A stretch of 64,000 nucleotides of DNA. It comes from Planctomycetota bacterium (GTDB lineage: Bacteria; Planctomycetota; B15-G4). The stretch is taken from NCBI GenBank assembly GCA_021604805.1, contig BQJR01000002.1, positions 133,078-197,077 of the forward strand, given 5' to 3'. Below are positions 1 to 61,034 of this stretch, piece after piece. Made by a program: the position numbers and the translations under genes. The notes beneath the pieces were generated by a model, which saw only the letters and a list, made by a program, of their open reading frames with translations, was not told where the DNA came from and did no database searches. How positions within the stretch are numbered: the first letter of the stretch is position 1; each line of letters starts with the position of its first letter.

Positions 1-1657
1 TCGGCCCGCCTGCGCCTGCGCGAAGAGCCAGCGACGCGCTCGCGGGATGCAGCGCGTGCAGCTTGTCACGACTCATGTCGACGCCGCCCCGGAACGACCC
101 GGCCAGCAAGCCGAGCACCACGAGCGCGACCACGCTCACCGGCACGATCCCCGTGAACACGCGCAAGCCACCGCGCGCGCGCCGCCCCCAGCGCGAGGCG
201 CCACGCAACAGCGGCAAGAGCAGCAACACCGGCAGTGCGCCGAGGCACAACAAGCGCCAAGCCACGCGTTGTTCCGACGGGAGCGGCGGCAAGGGCGGCG
301 GCGGCGCGAGCCCTGCGCCGCGTAACACGCGCCGTTCGGGACGCAGCTGTTCGTCGAGCAAGACTTGCAGCAGGCGTTCGTGCGCCATGCCGATCACTGG
401 CAAGAACGCGTCTTGGAAGGGGCTCGCCGCCGCGCTCGCCAGCAGCGTGCCGCGCCACGGATCGGCGTGACGCAACTGCACGAGCAGCGCCTGCTTCGCG
501 AGCGGCTCACCCTGCTCGTGCGTGAGCGCGATGAGCGGGATGCGGTCGCCTTGCAGCACTTGCGTCCAGCTGCGGTCGGAGGTCGTGGCGAGCACGTCGG
601 CCGACCAACCGCTCGCGGCCAGGCGCTGCTCGTCGGGACGCAGCGCCGTGGGCGTCATGAACAAGAGGTGCCCGTTGGGCTCGCCGGGCAGCGCGTGGAA
701 GTCTTGGTCGAGCGCGATGCTCGTGATGCGGAAGGGTGTGGGTACGAGCGTGTCGCCCACCGGCATCGGCGCCGAGTTCTCGTCGAGCAGCAGCGCTTCG
801 ACGGGCTGCAGACCGAAGGGTTCGTAGAGCGTGCGCGCGCCCATCTGTGCGTCGTCGATCACGAGGGAGCGCATCTCGCCGGAGCCGTCGAGCGAGGGCG
901 CCTGTTCGCTGCCGGCGACCAACACGCTGCCGCCCTCTTCGAGGAAGCGCTCCAGTTCGGCGACTCGTTCGGGAGTGACGTTGCGCGGCTCGAGCCACCA
1001 GAGCAGGTCGGCGTGGTCGAGCGGGGTGTCGCCGGGGAGCACGCTGCCACGTTCGGCGAGACGTTCGCGCAGCAGGTCGTAGCCGCGCTCGGGTGCGCGC
1101 AACACGATGCGCGCCGGGCGCGGCGACTCGAGCTCGTCGAGCTGCTCCACGATGAGCGACTGCAGGCGCGGTAGGTGTTCGGGACCCAGGCCGCGCAGCG
1201 AGCTCGGCGCGCGCGGGCCGTAAGCGATCGTGAGCGTGGACCAGACTTCGCGCTCGCTCCACGCGTCGTCGCGCAACTCACGCACACGCCGCGGCGAGAT
1301 GCGACGCTTGGCCGCGAAGCGCGCGAGCTCGGGATCGCTGCCGGGATCCAGCACGCGGTAGGTCACGCGCCCCTTCGAAGCCTCGGCCAGCGACGCGAGC
1401 AGGTCGCTCACGTCGCGCCGCAAATGGCGCAAAGCCGGCGGCATCTGCTCGGGCGCGCTCACGTAGTAGTTGAACTGCACCGGGTGCGTGAGCGTGTCGA
1501 GCCGTGCGCGCAACTCGGGCGACACGACCACGAGCTTGTTCGGCCCCAGCTCCACGCGCAGCCCGCGCGCGTGCTCCGAGAGCGCCACCAATCCGGCCAG
1601 CAGCGCCAGCCCGAAGACCAGCCGCAACGTGAGCTCGACGACGCCGGAGGCTCTCAT
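1..1657 (-). CDS. GldG-like ABC-transporter auxiliary protein, partial (C-terminal end beyond left window edge)
   Basis: Absent from the ORF track because it has no stop in the window. I checked every minus-strand codon from ATG 1655-1657 down to position 2 and found no stop. The ATG overlaps the upstream permease stop (ATGA). Translation begins MRASGVVELTLRLVFGLALLAGLVALSEHARGLRVELGPNKLVVVSPELRARLDTLTHPVQFNYYVS. It has an N-terminal TM helix, a GldG-type N-domain and late TM segments (ALPVLLLLPLL, IVPVSVVALVVLGLLAG). Confidence 0.75.
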   Translation of the reverse strand, partial: MRASGVVELTLRLVFGLALLAGLVALSEHARGLRVELGPNKLVVVSPELRARLDTLTHPVQFNYYVSAPEQMPPALRHLRRDVSDLLASLAEASKGRVTYRVLDPGSDPELARFAAKRRISPRRVRELRDDAWSEREVWSTLTIAYGPRAPSSLRGLGPEHLPRLQSLIVEQLDELESPRPARIVLRAPERGYDLLRERLAERGSVLPGDTPLDHADLLWWLEPRNVTPERVAELERFLEEGGSVLVAGSEQAPSLDGSGEMRSLVIDDAQMGARTLYEPFGLQPVEALLLDENSAPMPVGDTLVPTPFRITSIALDQDFHALPGEPNGHLLFMTPTALRPDEQRLAASGWSADVLATTSDRSWTQVLQGDRIPLIALTHEQGEPLAKQALLVQLRHADPWRGTLLASAAASPFQDAFLPVIGMAHERLLQVLLDEQLRPERRVLRGAGLAPPPPLPPLPSEQRVAWRLLCLGALPVLLLLPLLRGASRWGRRARGGLRVFTGIVPVSVVALVVLGLLAGSFRGGVDMSRDKLHALHPASASLALRAGAGGP

Positions 1658-2417
1658 CCCCGCTTGCGCTCGAGCACCCACGCGTTGAGCGCGAGGAACA
1701 ACACGCAGGCGCCGAGCACGTGCACGAGCGCCGGCACGCCGAGCAGTCCGCGCACGAAGGACTCGAAGGCCGGCAGCGCCGAGAGGTGTTCGCGCATCCA
1801 GGTGCCGGGCGCGCTCACGTCGGCCAAGCCATCGAGCACGGCCACGACGCGGTCGTCACCCAAGAGCACGAGCGTGAGACCGAGCACCGTGGTGGACACG
1901 AAGGCCACGATCTGATCGGCGCACAACGAGGACACGAGCATGCCCAGCGCGATGAGCTCGGCGCCGAGCAGCAAGGTGCCGAGCAGGCCGCTCAGGATCA
2001 GGCCGCCGTCGGGCGCACCGAGGCTCCACAACATCACGATCACGGGCAGTGCCGCCGCCACGAACAGGCCCAGCAGCAGCAGCGCCGCCAAGTACTTGCC
2101 GAGCACCGCCTGTCCCGCGCGGATCGGCATCGTGAGCAACATCTCGAGCGTGCGTTGTTTGCGCTCCTCGGCCCACAGCCGCATGGTCACGGCCGGCAGG
2201 AACACGGGCAGCAGCAGCGGCATGAGGTCGAACCACGGCCCCATGTCGACGCGCCCACTCAGGAAGAACTCGTTCATGAAGATCGAGTTCGCCAGCAGCG
2301 TGAAGGCGATGGCCGAGATCATCGCGATGCGGCCTTCGAACAAGCCACCGACTTCGCGACCGGCCACGGTGAACACGCCCGACCAGAAAGGCACGGCGCG
2401 CGAACGGGTGTGCGGCT

Positions 2418-2421: not shown

Positions 2422-3191
<770 letters not shown>

Positions 3192-3303
3192 GGGCGCCTG
3201 GGGTGTTTCGAGAGTGCGTGCGGTGCGCGCCGGGTAGCGCACGTTGCGCGACCGCGAGGCAGGCGACGAGTATAGGTCGCGGAGGGCGACGCCCGAAGAG
3301 GGC

Positions 3304-4665
3304 TCAGCCGTCGTCGCCCTCGGAACCGAGTTCGGCTGCAGGAGACGTGTCGGTGTCGGGCTCGGTGTCGGACTCGGTGTCGGGCTCGCCGTTGGCGTCG
3401 GGCTTGGTATCGGAGTCGGGCTCGGTGTCGGAGTCGGGCTCGCCATCGGTGTCGCCATCGGGCTCGGTGCCGGGAGCGGGCAACTCGCCGGCGGAGCTCT
3501 CTGCGGCCGGCGTTTCGGGCGCGAGTTCAACCGGCGGCTCGGGGTCTGGCAAGGGCTGCAGCAGATCGTCCCAGTTGGTGCGCAAGGCCTCGGCCGACGT
3601 GGCGCTCACCACGTAGGTCCACGCGCCGCGCTCCACGTGCAGGGCTTGGGCCTCCCCGTTCAGCGCGGCGGCGCTGCCCTCGAGCGCGGAGAAGGTGAGT
3701 TGGAGCCGGTGCTCGCTGCCGATGCGCGCGATCGCCGCCGCGATCACCAAACCGTCGTGGGTGGTGAAGCTTGCGTTCCAGCGCTCGTCGACTTGATCGA
3801 GTTCGGGCTCCAGCGCCACGCGTTGCATGCTCAGCGAAGCCAGCGCGTCGGCCAGACGCTCCAAGGGTGCGGCGTCGCGCAAGTTGCGATCCTCCGGCAC
3901 GTTCGCCACGCGCCACGCCGCGCTCGACGGCTCGGGCGGCACGGACGCGACGCTCGCGGCCTCGCCCGTCTCGGACTCCCCTGCTTCGGTCTCGGCATCG
4001 GGGTCGGCATCGGGCAACGCTTCGCGCTCCAGCAGCAACGGCTCGCCGTCGCGCGTGCTGATCTCCACGGCGGCCATGTCCTCCGCCGGGCGCGCGAGCA
4101 ACTGCAGGCTGACCCACTGCGCAGGATCCGAGGCAGGACGCCGCGCACCGTCGATCAACCAGGTTTGCGACGCGTCGCTCAGGCGCGCGTTCAATCGATG
4201 CGTGCGCGGCGGGCCACGCACGCTGCTGCCCAACACGACATCCGCGAGCGACGCGCCGGCCTCGTCGGACAAGCGCACGCGCAGGGCATCGCTGTCGGGG
4301 GCCGCCGGCTGCTCCACGCCGAGCAAGTGATGTCGTGCGGCGAGCGCCGTGCGCGCTTGCATGCGCGTGGCGTCGGCGAGCGACACGACCAACTCCTTCA
4401 CACTGTCGGCTTTGGCCGGGAACTCCTGCCAGGTCGCGAGCTGCCAGTCGTTGCCGTCGCGCTCGAGCACGAGCTCGCCCTCGGCACTGTTCAGCTCCAC
4501 GCGTGCCACGTCGTTGATCGACGCGGCGAGCGCGGGCAGCAATGCCTCGCCCAGCCCTTCAGGCGCAGCGCCGACGCTCGACTCCGAAGCCAGCGACGCG
4601 ATCGCAGCCGACGTCGCCAACACGGTGACCACCAACAACACGATGAACGCACGAGAGCTGTTCAT
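3304..4665 (-). CDS. DUF4340-like secreted/anchored protein with acidic Asp/Glu/Thr/Pro-rich C-terminal tail
   Basis: Starts at an internal ATG (MNSSRAFIVLLVVTVLATSAA) with an ATGA overlap to the gldG-like stop. It sits directly after a GldG-like gene, as is typical for DUF4340 (family call from memory). The C-terminus carries EPDSDTEPDSDTKPDANGEPDTESDTEPDTDT repeats. Confidence 0.7.
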   Translation of the reverse strand: MNSSRAFIVLLVVTVLATSAAIASLASESSVGAAPEGLGEALLPALAASINDVARVELNSAEGELVLERDGNDWQLATWQEFPAKADSVKELVVSLADATRMQARTALAARHHLLGVEQPAAPDSDALRVRLSDEAGASLADVVLGSSVRGPPRTHRLNARLSDASQTWLIDGARRPASDPAQWVSLQLLARPAEDMAAVEISTRDGEPLLLEREALPDADPDAETEAGESETGEAASVASVPPEPSSAAWRVANVPEDRNLRDAAPLERLADALASLSMQRVALEPELDQVDERWNASFTTHDGLVIAAAIARIGSEHRLQLTFSALEGSAAALNGEAQALHVERGAWTYVVSATSAEALRTNWDDLLQPLPDPEPPVELAPETPAAESSAGELPAPGTEPDGDTDGEPDSDTEPDSDTKPDANGEPDTESDTEPDTDTSPAAELGSEGDDG

Positions 4666-55129: not shown

Positions 55130-55164
55130 GCGCGCGCGGAGCAACGTGCTCGCCCGACGCTACA

Positions 55165-55232
55165 CCCCGACTGCCGCCGCGCTCCACGCCGACTGCCGCC
55201 GCGTTACGCCCCGACCGCCGCCGCGCTCCACA
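55165..55232. repeat. Three tandem ~20-24-nt copies of the terminal coding sequence of the aconitase-family gene (CCGAC[TC]GCCGCCGCG[CT]T[CA]C[AG])
   Basis: ccgactgccgccgcgctccacg / ccgactgccgccgcgttacg / ccccgaccgccgccgcgctccaca, read directly. The third copy is the start of the left direct repeat. The intact gene has a single copy at 58951-58970. Confidence 0.75.
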
Positions 55233-55637
55233 TCCCCGCCGTGTAGCTCGCGATCTTTCCTTCGATCGCCGACACGCTGACTTGCTCGGTGGTTTCCGAC
55301 ACGCCGGGGCCGCAGCCGATGCACGCGCCGCAGCCCGGGTTGATGATCGTGACGCCGGCGGCCTTGAAGGTGTCGAGCCAGCCGCGCTCTTCGGCGACGC
55401 GTTGCGTGGCCTCGCTGCCGAACTGGATGAAGAACTCCACGCCGTCGGCGACTTTCTTGCCCGCGGCGACGGCTTCGCTCATCACGCGCGCGTACATCTC
55501 GAAGTCGTCGACCTTGCTGGCGGTGCACGAACCGCCGTAGGCGATGTCGATGAACACATCGCCGAGATCGTCGACGATGGCTGCGTTCGTCGGGTCGCTC
55601 GGGATGCCCTTGTTGGGGTCACCGGGGTGCGCCACCA
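55204..55637 (-). pseudogene. Displaced 3'-terminal fragment of an aconitase-family gene (duplicate of 58942-59453) with a 78-nt internal deletion
   Basis: The translation VAHPGDPNKGIPSDPTN...YGGSCTASKVDDFEMYARVMSEAVAAGKKVADGVEFFIQFGSEATQRVAEERGWLDTFKAAGVTIINPGCGACIGCGPGVSETTEQVSVSAIEGKIASYTAGMWSAAAV matches the last ~170 aa of the 58942-60933 product. It lacks the first ~500 aa and the 26 aa NRNFQGRSGPGKLYLASPLTVAASAI. The N-terminal 20 aa of ORF 55204..55707 are unrelated junction sequence. Confidence 0.85.
55213..55637. repeat. Left direct repeat (DR-L) flanking the low-GC island
   Basis: 425 nt. By-eye alignment to 58951-59453 gives roughly 90% identity. Identity is highest near the gene's stop and decays toward the island. 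A 78-nt gap lies between two gatcgc microhomologies. Confidence 0.85.
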
Positions 55638-55750
55638 GCGGCCACTGCGTGGCCAGGCAGAGGACTCGACGGCTGCGGTTGCTTGCTCGTCGAGCAACAC
55701 TCACCATTCAAGACTCGATGCAACCAGCAATCCAACAAGCAAAGGGTCAT

Positions 55751-57157
55751 TCAATCAAAGAGGAGCAGCTGGTTCTCGTGGCTGCCGGAGCGAACAGAAA
55801 TCCACTGCGCCAACTCCGCAGCACGAAATCCGGATCGACTAAGGCGCTTTCCACGCCCGGGATTAGCAATCCCGACACAAACCCCAGCCAGCATTAGAGC
55901 TCGAGTGCATTCGATTACGTTCTTGTCTATGTGCTCGATGTCACCATTAAAGTTTACCGGATGACCACGAGACATCAGTGTAAAGCGATGCCCATCATCG
56001 TCTTTGCAGATATAGTCACCGAAAACTTTTGCATAGCGCGAACTCGGCGAGTCCACAGCACGCCACGCGGGCGAGAGCTCCAACTCGGGCATCTCCAAGA
56101 GCCCCCGATACTCGACGTCGGAGGACGACACACTTGCGAGGAATAGCGGCTTTGAATACCCCCACTTATGGAGCATCGCGACACCAGCCGAACCACCTGA
56201 CACCTTCCCCGTCGCACCGATTACTACCCAGTAATCCACTGACCGATGAGCTAGTGGCTGAATGAGATGTGAGCGTTGCAATAGCTGCACGCGAGATGCA
56301 TCACGATCGAGCCCTACAACCGAAGCAGCTCTATCAGCCAAACCCTCGCAGGTGGCCGCACCAATTGCTCCAAGCCCAACAACAACTACACCAGCCTGAG
56401 CCAATCGACAATCATATATTGCAAGTCGGTTTTCGATCTCACGCAGGCTCGCCTCGGCGATTGCTCGAGCTTCATACCTCCGCTTCCATCGAGTTCTCGC
56501 TGGAGCGAGGAAAGAGGAATCTTTGGAGATACCCCCTTCGGCGCGCATTCGCCTGAATGAATCAAGCATCTCTACACCGCTAGTCGTTTGCTCAATCACA
56601 ACAACCCTAGCGCGAATGCCAGCATTCTTGACCGACTGCCCCAGGATCCCTCCATCATCAAGCACAATCAAGCAATCGACATCAGATCCCTCATGCACCC
56701 GTACAGCACCTTCATCAACCACATCTCGAGCTACGGACTGTAAGGCATCGCCTGTCGGCATTCTCGCCATGGACGCAGCATAGTCATCCGGTTGATCAAT
56801 AACTGTGCAGCCCCAGCGCCGCAGGACCTGAACCACAAAGGGGTGCGCCGAGTACGGTTTTGTTCCGAGCACACAACGACTTGGCTCCAATCCCAGTTTC
56901 AGCAATGCTGCGACAAGCGGAAGCTGCGACGCGAGACAGTGCTGCATCCCCACGAGCACGCAACGCTTTAATGAGACTTTTGAATAGGTCGCTAGCACCT
57001 GCCCCAGCATGGGCATGCGGTAGGCATCTAGAAGTGCGCGTTCGGCAACCTCGGCAAGAGCAGGATTCGCGAGCGTTCGCTGAGCCCAGCACTCTCGCTG
57101 CAAGACGACTGACGGGTAGTCAGGCTTCATTGACAGACTTTTCATCAGCATCCTCAC
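55751..57157 (-). CDS. Divergent S-adenosyl-L-homocysteine-hydrolase-fold NAD-binding protein (island gene 3)
   Basis: 468 aa. Block-wise collinear with SAH hydrolase: RMPMLGQVLATYSKVSLKRCVLVGMQHCLASQLPLVAALLKLG versus EMPGLM..Y...[37 protein letters not shown] versus LDDGGDL; EQTTSGV versus EETTTGV; VVVVGLGAIGAATCEGL...VVGLDRD versus VAVVAGYGDVGKGCAQAL...VIITEIDP; SSSDVEY versus GHFDVEI; SRGHPVNF versus AEGRLVNL. The start is ambiguous: GTG 57157, or ATG at 57151, 57145 or 57130. Confidence 0.75.
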   Translation of the reverse strand: MRMLMKSLSMKPDYPSVVLQRECWAQRTLANPALAEVAERALLDAYRMPMLGQVLATYSKVSLKRCVLVGMQHCLASQLPLVAALLKLGLEPSRCVLGTKPYSAHPFVVQVLRRWGCTVIDQPDDYAASMARMPTGDALQSVARDVVDEGAVRVHEGSDVDCLIVLDDGGILGQSVKNAGIRARVVVIEQTTSGVEMLDSFRRMRAEGGISKDSSFLAPARTRWKRRYEARAIAEASLREIENRLAIYDCRLAQAGVVVVGLGAIGAATCEGLADRAASVVGLDRDASRVQLLQRSHLIQPLAHRSVDYWVVIGATGKVSGGSAGVAMLHKWGYSKPLFLASVSSSDVEYRGLLEMPELELSPAWRAVDSPSSRYAKVFGDYICKDDDGHRFTLMSRGHPVNFNGDIEHIDKNVIECTRALMLAGVCVGIANPGRGKRLSRSGFRAAELAQWISVRSGSHENQLLLFD

Positions 57158-58523
57158 TCGGAGAAATGCCTATCCCGTAATTCTTGCCGAGCTCGCAGTA
57201 AAGGGAAGCCAACTCAGCCAAATACTCCTGCAGCTTGCGAGCGTCTCCAACAATCGATTCAATTGGAAGCGCAGGCTCACTCGCGAAGTCAATCGTCAAG
57301 CACACTGGGCAACCACGGCGCGAGCTGCGTGAAGTCCAGTTCTTGTCCGGCACACCAAGAATGGCGACGATGCCGATCATGCGCTCCTCGAACCATCTAG
57401 CTACCTTTTCATCACCTTCAAGTCGGTAGTATAGAATCTCCTCACCCGCTTTTCCAAGACAGCGTACAGCAACGGGCTCCTGAGGATCGTCAAAAGGATC
57501 CTCATCATCTGCACCCTGAAAAACGAACCAACGCCGGGTAGGAAGCGGAAACGCTGGCTGCAGAAACTGCCTAAGTCGAAAGTCTCCCTCGCGCTCTAGA
57601 GGCTCAATGTAGGTTCGAGCATTCAGTGATTTAGAAACACCCCAAACCGTTGCACTACAGGCGTACCTATCGATTGAAACGGCGGCGTACGCGATTTTCT
57701 GCAGCAAAGCCCGCCAGTACATTCCAAATACGTTTGATGCTTCGGAGGAATCTTCTGAACCTGAAGCATCTTGGAGGTACGCCCGAAACCCTTTCAAGAA
57801 TGCGCTTGAAGGTGATAGCTCGCCCGCAATCTCTTCAAACAGCGTTTCAACCGAGCGCCTTGCAATGGGCGACCGGCGAATCCCAGCGAACAGGACTTCA
57901 CCCGCTCGGGTAGAGCGGCTCGCTGCGAGATGCGCCTCGGCCTGAACGGCAATCACGCAGTTACGCTTGAGATCTATCAGAGGCACGCCACTGAATGACC
58001 TCTCAGCGAGGACCTTGTCAGTGACGACCACAGCGTCGTACTCAGAAGTCACCTGACTGACGGGGCGGAGTTGAGGTTTCGACTCATCACTAAAGGCAAG
58101 AAGCGCAAAGTCGCCCGCGACACATGCCTTCACTCTCTCAGTTGAGAGCCTCTCAATCGAAAGCGCCTGGCGCTCGCCCGGGGATGCCGCTGAGTCACCC
58201 CCCTTCACATTCGGAGGGTGAGAGTCAAGCTTAAGCACTGCAAAATCTACATAGTGAGGTCCGAACTTGCGATAACAGACCTCCTCGACAGTGAACCCGA
58301 TCAAATCATCTGCTTGATCGGGGAATCGCACTTTGAGGTCGCGGTTAATTGCGTTTCCAAGTGCAAACAGGTGACCTGGTGCAACAACCCGATGAGCTCC
58401 CTGATCACGCCCACCTCCCAACCGAGCGAGCCAGCAGTGACAAATTCGCCGCCCACCATCAACAACAGTGCCCTCTGCTGTGACTTCAACTAACTCGGCA
58501 AGCGAATAGGAAATATTATCCAC
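57120..58523 (-). CDS. Trypsin-fold (S1/Trypsin_2-like) serine protease with an unassigned ~250-aa C-terminal domain (island gene 2)
   Basis: 467 aa. Candidate catalytic triad in canonical order and context: His in VVAPGHLFALGN, Asp in VDFAVLKLD, Ser in ERSFSGVPLIDLKRNCVIAV (the GxSGxP position). I recognise no family for the region from about aa 215 to the end. Confidence 0.75.
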   Translation of the reverse strand: MDNISYSLAELVEVTAEGTVVDGGRRICHCWLARLGGGRDQGAHRVVAPGHLFALGNAINRDLKVRFPDQADDLIGFTVEEVCYRKFGPHYVDFAVLKLDSHPPNVKGGDSAASPGERQALSIERLSTERVKACVAGDFALLAFSDESKPQLRPVSQVTSEYDAVVVTDKVLAERSFSGVPLIDLKRNCVIAVQAEAHLAASRSTRAGEVLFAGIRRSPIARRSVETLFEEIAGELSPSSAFLKGFRAYLQDASGSEDSSEASNVFGMYWRALLQKIAYAAVSIDRYACSATVWGVSKSLNARTYIEPLEREGDFRLRQFLQPAFPLPTRRWFVFQGADDEDPFDDPQEPVAVRCLGKAGEEILYYRLEGDEKVARWFEERMIGIVAILGVPDKNWTSRSSRRGCPVCLTIDFASEPALPIESIVGDARKLQEYLAELASLYCELGKNYGIGISPSEDADEKSVNEA

Positions 58524-58836
58524 CGGTAACCTGCCACTGTGCTCGAATCCTCACTGCCCCCGTTCCTCCGCACTTAATGATCCACTTCATTCCGGTTTCA
58601 CACGAAAGCTCCGCACCGAGTTCAACTTCAAGTGAAGTCGGACGAATGCCACTTGCATGCCCCACTGCGGCCGAACCGATTCTATGCACCAAACCCGCCA
58701 AGACTTGACCGATCTCTCCAAGTCGTTCGGGATTAAGTGAAGCCGCTCCGCTTTCAGCAGTTGCAACCCGCCCATCGGGGCTGGCTTGCTCGATCAGAAC
58801 GTCGACACCGTCGATGCACATTGACACGTACTGCAT
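58516..58836 (-). CDS. Small trypsin-co-occurring (Trypco / CU044_2847-like) protein (island gene 1)
   Basis: 106 aa with a GGAGGA RBS 5 nt upstream of the ATG. The pattern VDVLIEQAS...(~45 aa)...RPTSLEVELGAELSCETGMKWIIKCGGTGAVRIRAQW resembles, from memory, small proteins encoded next to trypsin-like proteases. It overlaps the protease start by 8 nt. Confidence 0.6.
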   Translation of the reverse strand: MQYVSMCIDGVDVLIEQASPDGRVATAESGAASLNPERLGEIGQVLAGLVHRIGSAAVGHASGIRPTSLEVELGAELSCETGMKWIIKCGGTGAVRIRAQWQVTGG

Positions 58837-58941
58837 CCCATCCTCCGTTAAACGTCCCCGTCCTTGCCCCTCCAGGTTTGAGCCAGCGCAGGATAGCAGA
58901 CCATTTGAGGAGGGGACCTAAAGCCACTCAGCGCCCCTCGA

Positions 58942-60933
58942 TTACCTGACGACCGCCGCCGCGCTCCACATCCCCGCCGTGTAGCTCGCGATCTTTCCCT
59001 CGATCGCTGACGCCGCCACCGTGAGCGGCGACGCGAGATACAGCTTGCCCGGCCCCGAACGCCCTTGGAAGTTGCGGTTGATCGCCGACACGCTGACTTG
59101 CTCAGTGGTCTCCGACACGCCCGGCCCGCAGCCGATGCACGCGCCGCAGCCCGGGTTGATGATCGTGACGCCGGCGGCCTTGAAGGTGTCGAGCCAGCCG
59201 CGCTCTTCGGCCACGGCTTGCGTGGCCTTGCTGCCGAACTGGATGAAGAACTCCACGCCGTCGGCGACCTTCTTGCCCGCGGCGACGGCTTCGCTCATCA
59301 CGCGCGCGTACATCTCGAAGTCGTCGACCTTGCCGGCGGTGCAGGAGCCGCCGTAGGCGATGTCGATGGCCACGTCGCCGAGCTCGTGCACGAAGGCGCC
59401 GTTGGTCGGGTCGCTGGGGATGCCGGCGTTCGGGTCACCGGGGTGCGCCACCATCGGGCGCAGCGTGGACAAGTCGATCGTGTGGACGCCGCCGTCGTAG
59501 ACCGCGCCTTCGTCGGGGGCGACGAGCGCGGCCATGAGCTCGGCCTTGCTGCGCGCGTCGCTACGGTTGGCGAGGATCCAGTCGACGAGCGCTTCGTCGC
59601 CCTCGCAGATGCCCGACTTGGCCGTGCACTCGGTGGCCATGTTGGCGAGCGTGGCGCGTTCGTCGAGCGACAGCTTCGCGAGGCCGGGGCCGCCGAACTC
59701 CATCATGCGATCGAGCGTGACCTCGTGCTTCGCGTACTTCTCGAGGATGTGCAGCATCACGTCTTTCGCCGAACAGTCGGCGGGCAACTCGCCCACCAGC
59801 TCGAAGCGCACGCTCTCGGCCACTTGCACGAAGGTGCTGCCCGACGCGATCAAGGACGCGTACTCGGTGGCCCCCACGCCGTAGGTCAGCGCGTTGTTGC
59901 CGCCGCCCATGCAGGTGTGACTGTCGGTGGCTTGGATGAAGTCGCCCGGATCCACGAAGTCGCGGCGCGCGACCTCGTGACAGATGCCGGGGCTGATGCC
60001 GTCGCGGCTCTGGTAGTCGCGCACCCCAGTGTGCTGCATGAACTCGGTCTGCAGCTCGCGCAGCGTGCCGATCTTGTCGGCGAAGGGCATGAAGCGCTTC
60101 ACGCCGTCGGCATACAGCAGGTGGTCTTCGAAGACGGCGAACTTGCTCGCGTCGGGCAACGTGTAGTCGTTCCCGTACTCGCGACGTAGGAACTCGTGCA
60201 CTTGCGCGGTCGTGAACTCGTGGCTGTAGCCGCCGTCGACCTTGGCCATGAGCGCGTCGCCGGGCTTCACGTAGTCGCCCTCGCCGATCATGTGCGCGGC
60301 GATCATCTTCTCGCCCATCGTCATCGGGCGCTTCGGCGTGCCGGGCGCGGGCACACTGATCTCGCCGGCCTTGAGCGCCTTCGCGAACGGGAACAAGCCG
60401 CCCATCTCCAACATGATCTTGGTGACGGGGTCGTAGCGCCCGGTGAACTCGTCGATCTCGATCGACTCACCGGCCTGCAAGCGCGCGAGCTGCGCGTGGT
60501 CGCCCATGAGCTGCCCGAGGTTGATGTTGTTGCGCTCGTGGATCGGCGCGAAGGACGCCGCGAACACGTATTTGATGCCGCTGAACTTCTCGCACTGCGG
60601 CGCCGTCTCGCGCGAGCTGCCGGTGCCTTTGCGGTAACCGCTCACGATGGCTTCGAAGTTGCCGTCCATGAGGCCGCGCTCGGGGATCACGCGTTCGCCG
60701 TCTTTGAGCAAGCCGGCGTAGGCGTTGAGCGCGATGTCTTCGGGGCGGTGACTGAAGCACACCCAGGCCGGGGTCATCACGTCGGTGTTGATGTCGTCGA
60801 GCAGGTCGTCGACCGAGAGGTCTTCCATGCGCAGGTTCAGCTCGCCGCGCACTTGCTTGGCGATCAGGTCGAGGTCCTTGGTGAGGAACAAGACGCGCTT
60901 GGTCGGGTCGAGCTGGATCGTGCGAGCGGCCAT
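58942..60933 (-). CDS. Aconitase/3-isopropylmalate-dehydratase family protein, swivel (LeuD-like) domain N-terminal to catalytic domains
   Basis: Starts at an internal ATG (MAARTIQLDPTKRV) of ORF 58942..60996. Swivel-domain motif GTGSSRE...ASFAPIHERNNINLG. Catalytic motifs ATDSHTCMGG, YGGSCTAGK, NPGCGACIGCG and SAINRNFQGRSG are intact. Confidence 0.88.
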   Translation of the reverse strand: MAARTIQLDPTKRVLFLTKDLDLIAKQVRGELNLRMEDLSVDDLLDDINTDVMTPAWVCFSHRPEDIALNAYAGLLKDGERVIPERGLMDGNFEAIVSGYRKGTGSSRETAPQCEKFSGIKYVFAASFAPIHERNNINLGQLMGDHAQLARLQAGESIEIDEFTGRYDPVTKIMLEMGGLFPFAKALKAGEISVPAPGTPKRPMTMGEKMIAAHMIGEGDYVKPGDALMAKVDGGYSHEFTTAQVHEFLRREYGNDYTLPDASKFAVFEDHLLYADGVKRFMPFADKIGTLRELQTEFMQHTGVRDYQSRDGISPGICHEVARRDFVDPGDFIQATDSHTCMGGGNNALTYGVGATEYASLIASGSTFVQVAESVRFELVGELPADCSAKDVMLHILEKYAKHEVTLDRMMEFGGPGLAKLSLDERATLANMATECTAKSGICEGDEALVDWILANRSDARSKAELMAALVAPDEGAVYDGGVHTIDLSTLRPMVAHPGDPNAGIPSDPTNGAFVHELGDVAIDIAYGGSCTAGKVDDFEMYARVMSEAVAAGKKVADGVEFFIQFGSKATQAVAEERGWLDTFKAAGVTIINPGCGACIGCGPGVSETTEQVSVSAINRNFQGRSGPGKLYLASPLTVAASAIEGKIASYTAGMWSAAAVVR
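58951..59453. repeat. Right direct repeat (DR-R), part of the intact aconitase-family gene
   Basis: 503 nt, equal to DR-L plus the 78-nt segment missing in DR-L. Confidence 0.85.
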
Positions 60934-61034
60934 GGTGAACTCCCGGGTCGTGTGCAGGTGCGCGCCTCGATGCTCGGCGGCGCGTGCCGTGGTCACGCGC
61001 GGTGAACACGCGCGAGGTGCTGCCCTGACATGCC

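Follow-up and report, generated by a model that had tools for sequence, protein, structure and literature searches.

A foreign three-gene cassette encoding a Trypco1/Pepco-type protein, a trypsin-like protease, and an SAH-hydrolase-fold protein in a Planctomycetota bacterium resembles the protease-gated immune systems of bacteria and appears to represent an undescribed variant of these

The DNA analyzed here is a stretch of 64,000 nucleotides (nt) from contig BQJR01000002.1 of a Planctomycetota bacterium (metagenome-assembled genome GCA_021604805.1, positions 133,078 to 197,077 of the forward strand), which is referred to as the window in the following. The element in question is a cassette of three genes on the minus strand of the window, for which an original prediction, made by reading the letters without database searches, had suggested a Trypco-like protein, a trypsin-fold protease, and an S-adenosylhomocysteine (SAH)-hydrolase-fold protein. 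The three open reading frames (ORFs) lie exactly where they had been placed, namely at 58836->58516, 58523->57120, and 57157->55751, and the ORF coordinates also bear out the overlaps that had been given, which amount to 8 nt between genes 1 and 2 and to 11-38 nt between genes 2 and 3, depending on the start codon of the latter. Gene 3 has four in-frame starts, which result in an overlap with gene 2 of 38, 32, 26, or 11 nt. Most likely, gene 3 starts with the ATG at 57145, which has a GAGGA sequence 5 nt upstream and yields a 26-nt overlap and a protein of 464 amino acids (aa), the same gene as was called independently on a Logan contig of the same DNA. The cassette is made up of the following features, given in positions of the window:

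55666..58941: three-gene cassette island of 3.28 kb, with the stop codon of an aconitase gene at one edge and a displaced copy of the 3' end of that gene at the other
58837..58941, minus strand: leader of 105 nt located 5' of gene 1; at a distance of 6 nt, the ATG is preceded by the ribosome-binding site GGAGGA, as read from the sequence
58516..58836, minus strand: gene 1, 106 aa, Trypco1/Pepco-type protein (Pfam PF19493)
58523->57120, minus strand: gene 2, 467 aa, locus tag DHS20C15_12890 (ORF call)
57924..58523, minus strand: N-terminal ~200 aa of gene 2, trypsin-like serine protease domain (His51/Asp93/Ser178)
57120..57731, minus strand: C-terminal ~200 aa of gene 2 (stop codon included), here named the X domain (BLASTP, hhalign)
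55751..57157, minus strand: gene 3, 468 aa (464 aa from the ATG at 57145), SAH-hydrolase-fold protein (AlphaFold2, Foldseek, profile search)

The island at 55666-58941 has a GC content of 54.9%, with 400-nt windows spanning 51-59%, compared to a mean of 68.9% +/- 1.1% in non-overlapping windows of the same size from the rest of the 64 kb (z = -12.7 for the island). Likewise, the GC content at third codon positions (GC3) is 0.50-0.54 in the three island genes vs. 0.87-0.93 in six flanking genes. The GC and codon statistics are hence distinct from those of the flanks, as had been expected; the direction of the GC difference was predicted correctly, whereas the predicted figures (45-53% in the island against 70-75% in the flanks) were overstated. 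This distance of GC and GC3 from the flanks points to a recent horizontal acquisition. The genes overlap and share a common GC3 of 0.50-0.54 within a host GC3 of ~0.9, and the island is a foreign, co-inherited unit. The promoter of gene 1 is presumably located in the 105-nt leader, in which a promoter scan found no sigma-70 consensus site.

The product of gene 1 matches the Pfam family PF19493 (Trypco1) with 35.4 bits over residues 9-102, above the gathering cutoff of 24.6, which confirms its assignment as a Trypco protein, and it is homologous to the Trypco1 proteins encoded on two other contigs, L060 (E = 6e-6) and L059. The names Trypco1 and Trypco2 go back to Kaur et al. (2020; PMC7159879), who described them as obligate neighbors of the trypsin-like peptidases that occur in conflict systems. 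In the original prediction the Trypco protein was regarded as a mere marker of such systems. This view has been overturned by a preprint, which equates Trypco1/2 with Pepco and shows that Pepco itself is a protease-activated pore-forming effector (Evans et al., 2025; PMC12642450). SsPepco of Streptomyces subrutilus assembles into stable 9-10-mer beta-barrels, which form lethal membrane pores after cleavage, whereby a 20-residue tail after Ile97 is removed; the cleaving protease is encoded by the adjacent gene and is fused to an Avs4 sensor (PMC12642450). It has also been reported that protease-effector pairs recombine with many sensors, that protease-licensed zymogens include a metallo-beta-lactamase (MBL) nuclease and an alpha/beta hydrolase, and the authors raise possible roles of protease-effector modules in stress response (PMC12642450). 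Extrapolated from SsPepco (PMC12642450), gene 1 would encode the precursor of a pore-forming toxin.

For gene 2, neither the whole protein nor its halves yielded a match in Pfam or among the PDB sequences, and the whole protein had no match in NCBIfam or PADLOC. A tblastn search against plasmids and a scan of metagenome contigs were likewise without a match, and a word-indexed homologue search returned only self-matches for genes 1 and 2. Gene 2 can be assigned to the trypsin-like family because of homologues that were found through the contexts of gene 3 relatives. BLASTP aligned gene 2 to the protease of L059 with 28.5% identity over 284 aa (E = 2e-23) and to the protease of L060 with 28% identity over 203 aa (E = 4e-9), and the L060 protease matches the Pfam family Trypsin_2 with 49.1 bits in a region that spans exactly the catalytic triad. 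In the three-way alignment of gene 2 with its L060 and L059 homologues, H51, D93, and S178-G179-x-P181 are invariant. Thus, the trypsin-fold call for gene 2 holds by way of its homologues and not by a direct match. A composite His...Asp...Ser motif with trypsin-like spacing matched, among 2,568 six-frame ORFs, gene 2, its copy on a duplicate contig, and just one further protein, a genuine HtrA, and it occurred in 0 of 20,000 shuffles; since this motif was composed after seeing the sequence, it serves as supporting evidence only. A single-sequence hhalign comparison of gene 2 with two real Trypsin_2 proteins was powerless, as it did not even detect the similarity between the two real proteases, and a PDB profile search with the alignment of the three proteases gave nothing useful.

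The C-terminal half of gene 2 constitutes a separate conserved domain, the X domain, and this domain makes for a true link of gene 2 to its partner of the SAH hydrolase (SAHH)-like type. The X domain of gene 2 matches the C-termini of the L060 (E = 4e-9) and L059 (E = 2e-23) proteases. Close relatives of gene 3 that have a long N-terminal extension are preceded by a gene for a ~300-aa protein with an N-terminal membrane helix, in the following called transmembrane (TM)-X protein. The profile of these TM proteins matched the C-terminus of gene 2 in hhalign with a probability of 77% and a score of 41.5, compared to 24.2 for the best of 249 control proteins and 20.9 for the best of 150 shuffles. 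Bridging matches lead from the protein L061_312 to the L060 protease (4e-21) and from the L060 protease to the TM protein of L014 (2e-6). An early hidden Markov model (HMM) from six TM-X sequences gave just 5.3 bits to gene 2; the X-domain link is considered solid because of the hhalign result with its controls and the intermediates from L059, L060, and L061. Motifs shared by the X domains are W..Q..l.aA..i.P...sANlw.vs, ErEG.F...Q, E...G.tHIlGvP, and lTIDl.

A membrane-anchored X protein is encoded beside the SAHH-like gene in L004, L006, L014, L020, L026 (Actinoplanes), and L061, and in an Acidimicrobiales metagenome-assembled genome (L011, 8711-11251) the TM-X protein is naturally fused to the SAHH-like protein, resulting in a product of 846 aa. 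The X domain is fused to a protease in gene 2 of the window as well as in L059 and L060. Altogether, the pairing of an X domain, either upstream or fused, with an SAHH-like protein carrying an N-terminal extension is present at ten loci including the window. An X-domain HMM detected no ORF outside these SAHH-like partners at E <= 1e-3 among 5,480 stop-to-stop ORFs from ~1 Mb of fetched loci, and the X domain has no counterpart in Pfam, NCBIfam, PADLOC, or PDB. The X domain and the SAHH-like protein thus form a constant core. The N-terminus of the X protein, in contrast, varies between a membrane anchor and a trypsin-like protease that is accompanied by Trypco1. The TM-X gene of L020 (8572-9513) consists of two ORFs (138 and 171 aa), which indicates a frameshift/pseudogene or an assembly error. 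In L061, two genes (2525-4220) for proteins of 112 aa and 454 aa without database matches, which overlap by 8 nt, are located upstream of the TM-X and SAHH-like pair, and the opposite strand encodes a 340-aa protein with serine-protease motifs (SNNHV ... GGDSGS; 710-1732, minus strand).

Gene 3 alone gave merely sub-threshold Rossmann-loop matches in Pfam and NCBIfam, a single distant match in the word-indexed search, and no match by tblastn against plasmids or in the metagenome-contig scan. An exhaustive phmmer search collected 1,003 cluster representatives at E <= 1e-3, 250 of them at E <= 1e-10, with ~30% identity, and several of these relatives pass the AdoHcyase_NAD cutoff. A family profile built from 78 sequences matched the adenosylhomocysteinases of the PDB over the full length with E = 5.7e-31, the best PDB sequence matches being the human SAHH-like structures 3mtg and 3gvp. 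The AlphaFold2 model of gene 3 that was built on the 78-sequence alignment reached a predicted local distance difference test (pLDDT) score of 87.4 and a predicted TM-score (pTM) of 0.89, and the top 50 PDB matches of this model in Foldseek were all SAHH, with a target-length normalized TM-score of at most 0.74. Profile, model, and fold search agree with the SAH-hydrolase-fold call, and gene 3 encodes a divergent protein of the SAH-hydrolase superfamily, which has the SAHH fold and a predicted binding site for nicotinamide adenine dinucleotide (NAD).

The residues H73, D167 ("LDDGG"), E189-Q190-T191 ("VEQTT"), K225, E229, G261xG263xxG266, and D284 of gene 3 are invariant in the family and align to the SAHH motifs HxT, LDDGGD, EETTTG, and TKSKFDN in the HMM alignment. 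In human SAHH numbering we take their equivalents to be His55, Asp131, Glu155, Glu156 (replaced by Gln), Thr157, Lys186, and Asp190 (replaced by Glu), a set of residues that holds and oxidizes the ribose in SAHH. In a profile alignment to AHCYL1, the column of the histidine in "GHSNTEI", which we take to be His301 of human SAHH, contains Ser in the family, and there is no conserved His in the region of what we likewise take to be His353. None of the AhcY equivalog models matched gene 3, and scores of 31-113 bits were obtained for its relatives, vs. AhcY cutoffs of 497.6 (TIGR00936) and 275 (NF004005). Furthermore, no recurrent S-adenosylmethionine (SAM)-cycle genes were present among the neighbors of 46 gene 3 relatives. 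The possibility that the homologues of gene 3 are ordinary AhcY enzymes in methionine-cycle contexts, which had been named as a refutation of the original prediction, is thus contradicted by scores and neighbors alike. By these comparisons the gene 3 family is not AhcY, but it retains most of the ribose-site and NAD-site residues of SAHH. On plasmids, copies of the family are labeled "NAD(P)-dependent oxidoreductase" or "hypothetical protein" by NCBI.

Via the contigs of the closest gene 3 relatives we found the neighborhood again, with the same gene order, on two unrelated metagenomic contigs, so the refutation named in the original prediction, a trio not conserved elsewhere, does not apply. 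L060 (the context of the relative P0009) encodes a Trypco1 protein (51.5 bits), a Trypsin_2 protease of 444 aa, and an SAHH-like protein of 520 aa in the order of the window, with a junction of 1 nt between the Trypco1 and protease genes and a 23-nt overlap between the protease and SAHH-like genes. This cassette is a 3.4-kb islet with 53-61% GC vs. 67-72% around it. L059 (the context of P0007) contains, again in this order, genes for a Trypco1 protein (25.0 bits), the protease homologue (open from 1065 to 2402), and an abutting 598-aa SAHH-like protein. Gene 3 shares 30% identity with P0009 (E = 2e-30), and the SAHH-like proteins of the three trios share just 28-31% pairwise identity, so the arrangement is old and has been kept across deep divergence. 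We are highly confident of the domain identities and of the recurrence of the trio. In L059, the protease frame extends over 134 open codons until an ATG/GTG/TTG is reached (1065-1467), and the catalytic His and Asp motifs lie inside this region; either an unusual start, coupling to the Trypco1 gene, or an error in the Logan contig accounts for it. A Trypsin_2 lipoprotein encoded beside the SAHH-like gene of Longimicrobium L008 was considered as part of a fourth trio and rejected, since it has a host-like GC content and a lipobox signal peptide and is absent in the sister genome L010.

In order to scan genomes for the gene 3 family, a 14-member alignment was used instead of the 78-member profile, which was too diverse for this purpose. 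The scan resulted in 51 loci from very diverse phyla, which had no common neighborhood and no Trypco gene. A conserved neighborhood for the SAHH-like family as a whole was therefore rejected, as the neighbors of 46 loci share no recurrent family. The gene for P0001 (336 aa; L001, 10001-11011), for instance, separates secY from adk on a metagenomic contig of 57 kb, where it is inserted into a ribosomal-protein operon that is canonical in other respects. Other copies have mobile or conflict-type surroundings: P0004 (L004) is part of an element with a serine recombinase, a helix-turn-helix/M78 pair, a relaxase, and RadC; P0006 adjoins HNH, OLD-TOPRIM/AAA_15, and UvrD genes in a Gabija-like arrangement; and five conjugative plasmids of Legionella pneumophila carry the SAHH-like copy amid genes for YafQ, MazG, WGR, a recombinase, HicAB, and a P-loop NTPase. 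The Simkania plasmid pSn and a Streptomyces plasmid also bear SAHH-like copies. A gene for a MazG-type pyrophosphohydrolase lies within a few kb of the copy on the L. pneumophila plasmid NZ_CP015948.1 (L066, 58056-59420) and of that on pSn (L067), and WGR-domain genes are adjacent to the SAHH-like gene in Legionella and no more than ~1 kb away from P0144 in L058. Relatives of gene 3 were not detected in viruses (viral-contig scan, BFVD fold search, and phage tblastn). Of 49 family genes, 15 have a GC content at least 3 points below that of their flanks and four lie above it. In Longimicrobium the SAHH-like gene is a single-gene islet with 58-59% vs. 68-69% GC (L008, 9986-11281; L010, 504-1751), and the different positions of these two islets suggest that the gene moves alone. 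The large relatives P0144, P0061, P0065, P0117, P0135, and P0151 (1,182-1,362 aa) have the SAHH-like domain at their C-terminus, while the preceding 700-950 residues are without a Pfam, NCBIfam, or PADLOC match; P0144 (L058, 8001-12089) lies near WGR/ligase-like genes. That these large proteins are fusions of gene 2 and gene 3 was rejected, as a phmmer search of gene 2 against 152 relatives found none.

Among known systems, the cassette resembles the Pepco-trypsin modules such as SsPepco-SsAvs4 in that a small Trypco gene is located just upstream of, and translationally coupled to, a trypsin-like protease gene, and in that the protease bears an extra input-side domain. It differs from these modules in its input, which consists of the X domain and a separate SAHH-fold protein instead of a STAND ATPase, FGE, peptidoglycan-binding, or vWA-MoxR component, as well as in its protease domain, which is too divergent to match Trypsin_2, and in the tail of gene 1, which has 5 residues compared to 20 in SsPepco. 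No NTPase or other known sensor domain was detected in gene 2, gene 3, or the island with Pfam, PADLOC, and NCBIfam. The trypsin-MBL nuclease pairs of the Avs2/Avs type follow a sensor, trypsin-like protease, and latent death effector logic (PMC12799240; PMC12642450), which the cassette would share, and there too protease and effector travel together as a mobile module, which is recombined with different sensors (Tuck et al., 2025; PMC12799240); unlike them, the cassette would use a pore-toxin precursor as effector in place of an MBL nuclease, and its sensor is not an ATPase. Neither PMC12799240 nor PMC12642450 mentions SAHH, Rossmann-fold, or dehydrogenase partners. With AhcY/SAHH and its non-catalytic paralogues AHCYL1/2 (IRBIT), gene 3 shares the fold of two Rossmann domains, the GxGxxG NAD site, and most ribose residues. 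Unlike AhcY/SAHH, to which its identity is 13-20%, it does not keep His301/His353, has an N-terminal helical extension and X-domain partners, and lies outside a methionine-cycle context, its own neighbors being Trypco1 and the protease.

In PADLOC-DB v2.0.0, nothing was found for genes 1-3 except one Rossmann-loop match (E = 0.026), and the relatives and TM-X proteins gave weak E1-like Rossmann-loop matches only. The trio is absent from PADLOC-DB v2 and NCBIfam, and a literature search of main texts found no paper that links SAHH/AdoHcyase-like proteins with Trypco/Pepco or phage defense. The earlier statement that no named defense system is known to add a divergent SAH-hydrolase-fold protein as third component is in line with these databases and with the searchable literature. 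The output half of the cassette, Pepco and protease, is of a kind already known; the input half of X domain and SAHH-like protein, and hence the trio, is new.

Taken together, these features make the cassette look like a so far undescribed form of the protease-gated immune systems of bacteria, in which a protease-effector module would be combined with a new type of sensor. As Pepco itself is the effector (PMC12642450), the cassette contains a killing module of a known kind, and the first hypothesis of the original prediction, with the protease as activator and the SAHH-fold protein as sensor, is favored over the second, with the SAHH-fold protein as effector. The SAHH-like protein is placed on the sensing side chiefly because it stays constant together with the X domain, while the membrane anchor is swapped against the protease and pore toxin; in the membrane-anchored pairs, the anchor would then be the output. 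In the CBASS, Pycsar, and Avs families, TM effectors and enzymatic or protease effectors are interchangeable on a constant sensing core. The X and SAHH-like core with its varying N-terminal part is similar in this respect, whereas a cyclase, a STAND ATPase, or a recognizable nucleotide-signal receptor domain, as known from those families, is not present in the cassette. With moderate confidence we interpret the cassette as a conflict system in which Pepco and the protease are the output and the SAHH-like protein acts on the input side. Most likely, it is an anti-phage system of the abortive-infection type.

In this interpretation, the gene 1 protein would, by analogy with SsPepco, pre-assemble as a beta-barrel, which would turn into a membrane pore upon clipping of its C-terminus by the N-terminal trypsin-like domain of gene 2 (His51, Asp93, Ser178). 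The SAHH-like protein would bind, and perhaps oxidize or turn over, an adenosine-containing metabolite or signal that is altered by infection. Speculatively, candidate ligands may include SAM-cycle products that are altered by phage SAM-degrading enzymes. Either the ligand-driven open-to-closed movement of the SAHH fold or the reaction product might be relayed to the X domain, whereupon the protease would be released or oligomerized, Pepco would be cut, and the cell would be permeabilized. More tentatively, and with some doubt, we suggest that an NAD-bound enzyme of the SAHH fold might serve as an immune sensor or signal converter for a phage-perturbed adenosyl metabolite or a phage-made nucleoside, that the X domain might switch either a membrane-anchored killer or a Pepco-arming protease, and that X and SAHH-like proteins might constitute a widespread, undescribed conflict-system family, of which the trio would be the protease-gated branch. 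There is a substantial chance that the X and SAHH-like core is a new conflict-system family in its own right.

Several observations weigh against this interpretation. In gene 1, the last conserved strand leaves a tail of just 5 residues, compared to 9-10 in the L059/L060 homologues, and the candidate Ile/Val positions fall within that last strand; counted from the last conserved Trp, the tails of these Trypco1 proteins have 5-10 residues. Given the 20-residue tail of SsPepco, the cleavage logic may differ. SsPepco may moreover belong to the sister Pfam family PF24393 instead of Trypco1, a family to which the Trypco1 protein of L060 has a weak match (21.9 bits). Gene 2 is without a direct match to any protease model, and its single-sequence AlphaFold2 model is unusable (pLDDT 35.9). 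The trios found are three in number, two of them on short metagenomic contigs, and approximately 40 of the 51 genome loci of the SAHH-like family have neither an X-domain nor a Trypco neighbor. As a whole the SAHH-like family is not defense-specific, some of its contexts being of the housekeeping type, and the gene content around the cassette shows that the 64-kb window is not a defense island. While the gene structure, the foreign origin, the domain identities, the recurrence of the trio, and the pairing of X domain and SAHH-like protein are established by the data, the anti-phage role is deduced from parts and context, and the direction of signaling and the ligand are likewise deduced. Finally, the strict conservation of catalytic-type residues in gene 3 fits an enzyme effector equally well as a sensor.

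In an alternative, which corresponds to the second hypothesis of the original prediction, the SAHH-like protein is an effector or pro-enzyme. Licensed by the protease or the X domain, it would act on an essential adenosyl metabolite (SAM/SAH, NAD, ATP, or adenosine) by destruction or conversion, so that the cassette would kill by two arms, and the role of sensor in the membrane-anchored pairs would fall to the TM-X protein. The equivalents of the ribose-oxidation and NAD-site residues are invariant throughout the family, which argues for catalysis over mere binding; zymogens licensed by a protease are established in the form of the MBL nuclease and the alpha/beta hydrolase (PMC12642450); and many family members occur singly, which would be possible for effectors encoded by one gene. 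We nevertheless consider this alternative unlikely, since Pepco and the protease already make a complete output that needs no second effector, and since the part that varies is the N-terminus of the X protein, which is the usual way in which outputs are swapped. SAHH-type chemistry is reversible and uses a tightly bound NAD catalytically. Such a reversible reaction makes a poor device for depleting a metabolite, and neither His301 nor His353 has a conserved equivalent in the family.

Still less probable is a role of the cassette in regulated cell death or addiction that is not aimed at phages, for example as a suicide switch responding to stress or a metabolite, or as a stabilizer of mobile DNA. 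Relatives of gene 3 do occur amid toxin-antitoxin genes on conjugative plasmids and beside recombinases, the window neighbors of the cassette are metabolic and not defense genes, and stress-response roles are raised in the preprint (PMC12642450). On the other hand, all characterized pairings of Pepco/Trypco with a protease are tied to phage-sensing or conflict systems, and the island itself lacks mobility genes that it could stabilize. That gene 3 is an unrelated metabolic passenger, with Trypco1 and a protease carrying its own C-terminal sensor domain as the functional unit, is highly improbable, as the 11-38 nt overlap of genes 2 and 3 has its match in L060 (23 nt) and L059 (abutting), the trio is kept at 28-31% identity, and X-domain proteins occur only beside SAHH-like genes in the ~1 Mb of fetched loci, in one case even fused, although most family members lack Trypco, protease, or X-domain neighbors and the L008 copy adjoins an unrelated trypsin-like lipoprotein, apparently by chance.

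Protease-gated death effectors have lately been recognized as a dominant logic of bacterial immunity, and nearly all of their known inputs are pattern receptors of the ATPase type. The cassette couples a Pepco-protease output to the fold of a metabolic enzyme, in a partnership that extends across at least ten loci including the window. If the SAHH-like protein is indeed the input, a classical nucleoside-processing scaffold would have been recruited for sensing infection, in parallel to the animal AHCYL1/IRBIT that turned into a regulator, and the cassette would offer a tractable three-gene system for finding the adenosyl metabolite that reports infection. Two uncharacterized families become available for annotation, namely the X domain and an SAHH-like clade that comprises 1,000 or more cluster representatives.

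With regard to the surroundings of the island, the following features border on it:

58942..60996, minus strand: intact gene of the aconitase/isopropylmalate-dehydratase family, 684 aa (Pfam Aconitase, 288 bits)
55204..55665, minus strand: remnant of the 3' end of the aconitase gene, start codon absent (Pfam Aconitase, 80 bits)
55158..55231: ~30-nt terminus of the aconitase gene, present in three tandem copies with a 22-nt spacing (repeat search)

The diverged direct copies of a housekeeping-type 3' end that had been noticed on both sides of the island are these aconitase-family sequences: ~460 nt of the 3' end of the gene (58950-59481) are present again at 55212-55665 with 92-97% identity. 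In the remnant, which is the downstream copy of the repeat, 78 nt are deleted in frame; this deletion is flanked by two short "GCGATCGA" repeats (SAI...SAI in the protein), and the GC3 of the remnant is host-like (0.91). As both repeat copies are of high GC and the cargo is not, a homology-assisted insertion from a related donor fits better than a classical att site. The ~30-nt tandem copies, which are located immediately downstream of the remnant, may be scars of repeated insertion or excision at the end of the aconitase gene; a fourth copy of this terminus is located at the end of the intact gene (58940-58969). The absence of integrase and transposase genes, which had also been pointed out, extends to recombinases and was found in the island as well as within ~10 kb of it. 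An integrative element with its own integrase or a tRNA target was rejected, since there is no recombinase within 10 kb and the sole tRNA lies at 32.9 kb. One flank contains genes for a thiolase, an enoyl-CoA hydratase, and a cyclophilin, the other for an FG-GAP protein along with a Ser/Thr kinase. In the 684-aa aconitase-family protein, the swivel domain (Aconitase_C/LeuD-like, residues 118-163) is located N-terminal to the catalytic Aconitase domain (245-667), and the protein represents a permuted, fused hydratase, which the thiolase and enoyl-CoA hydratase genes adjoin.

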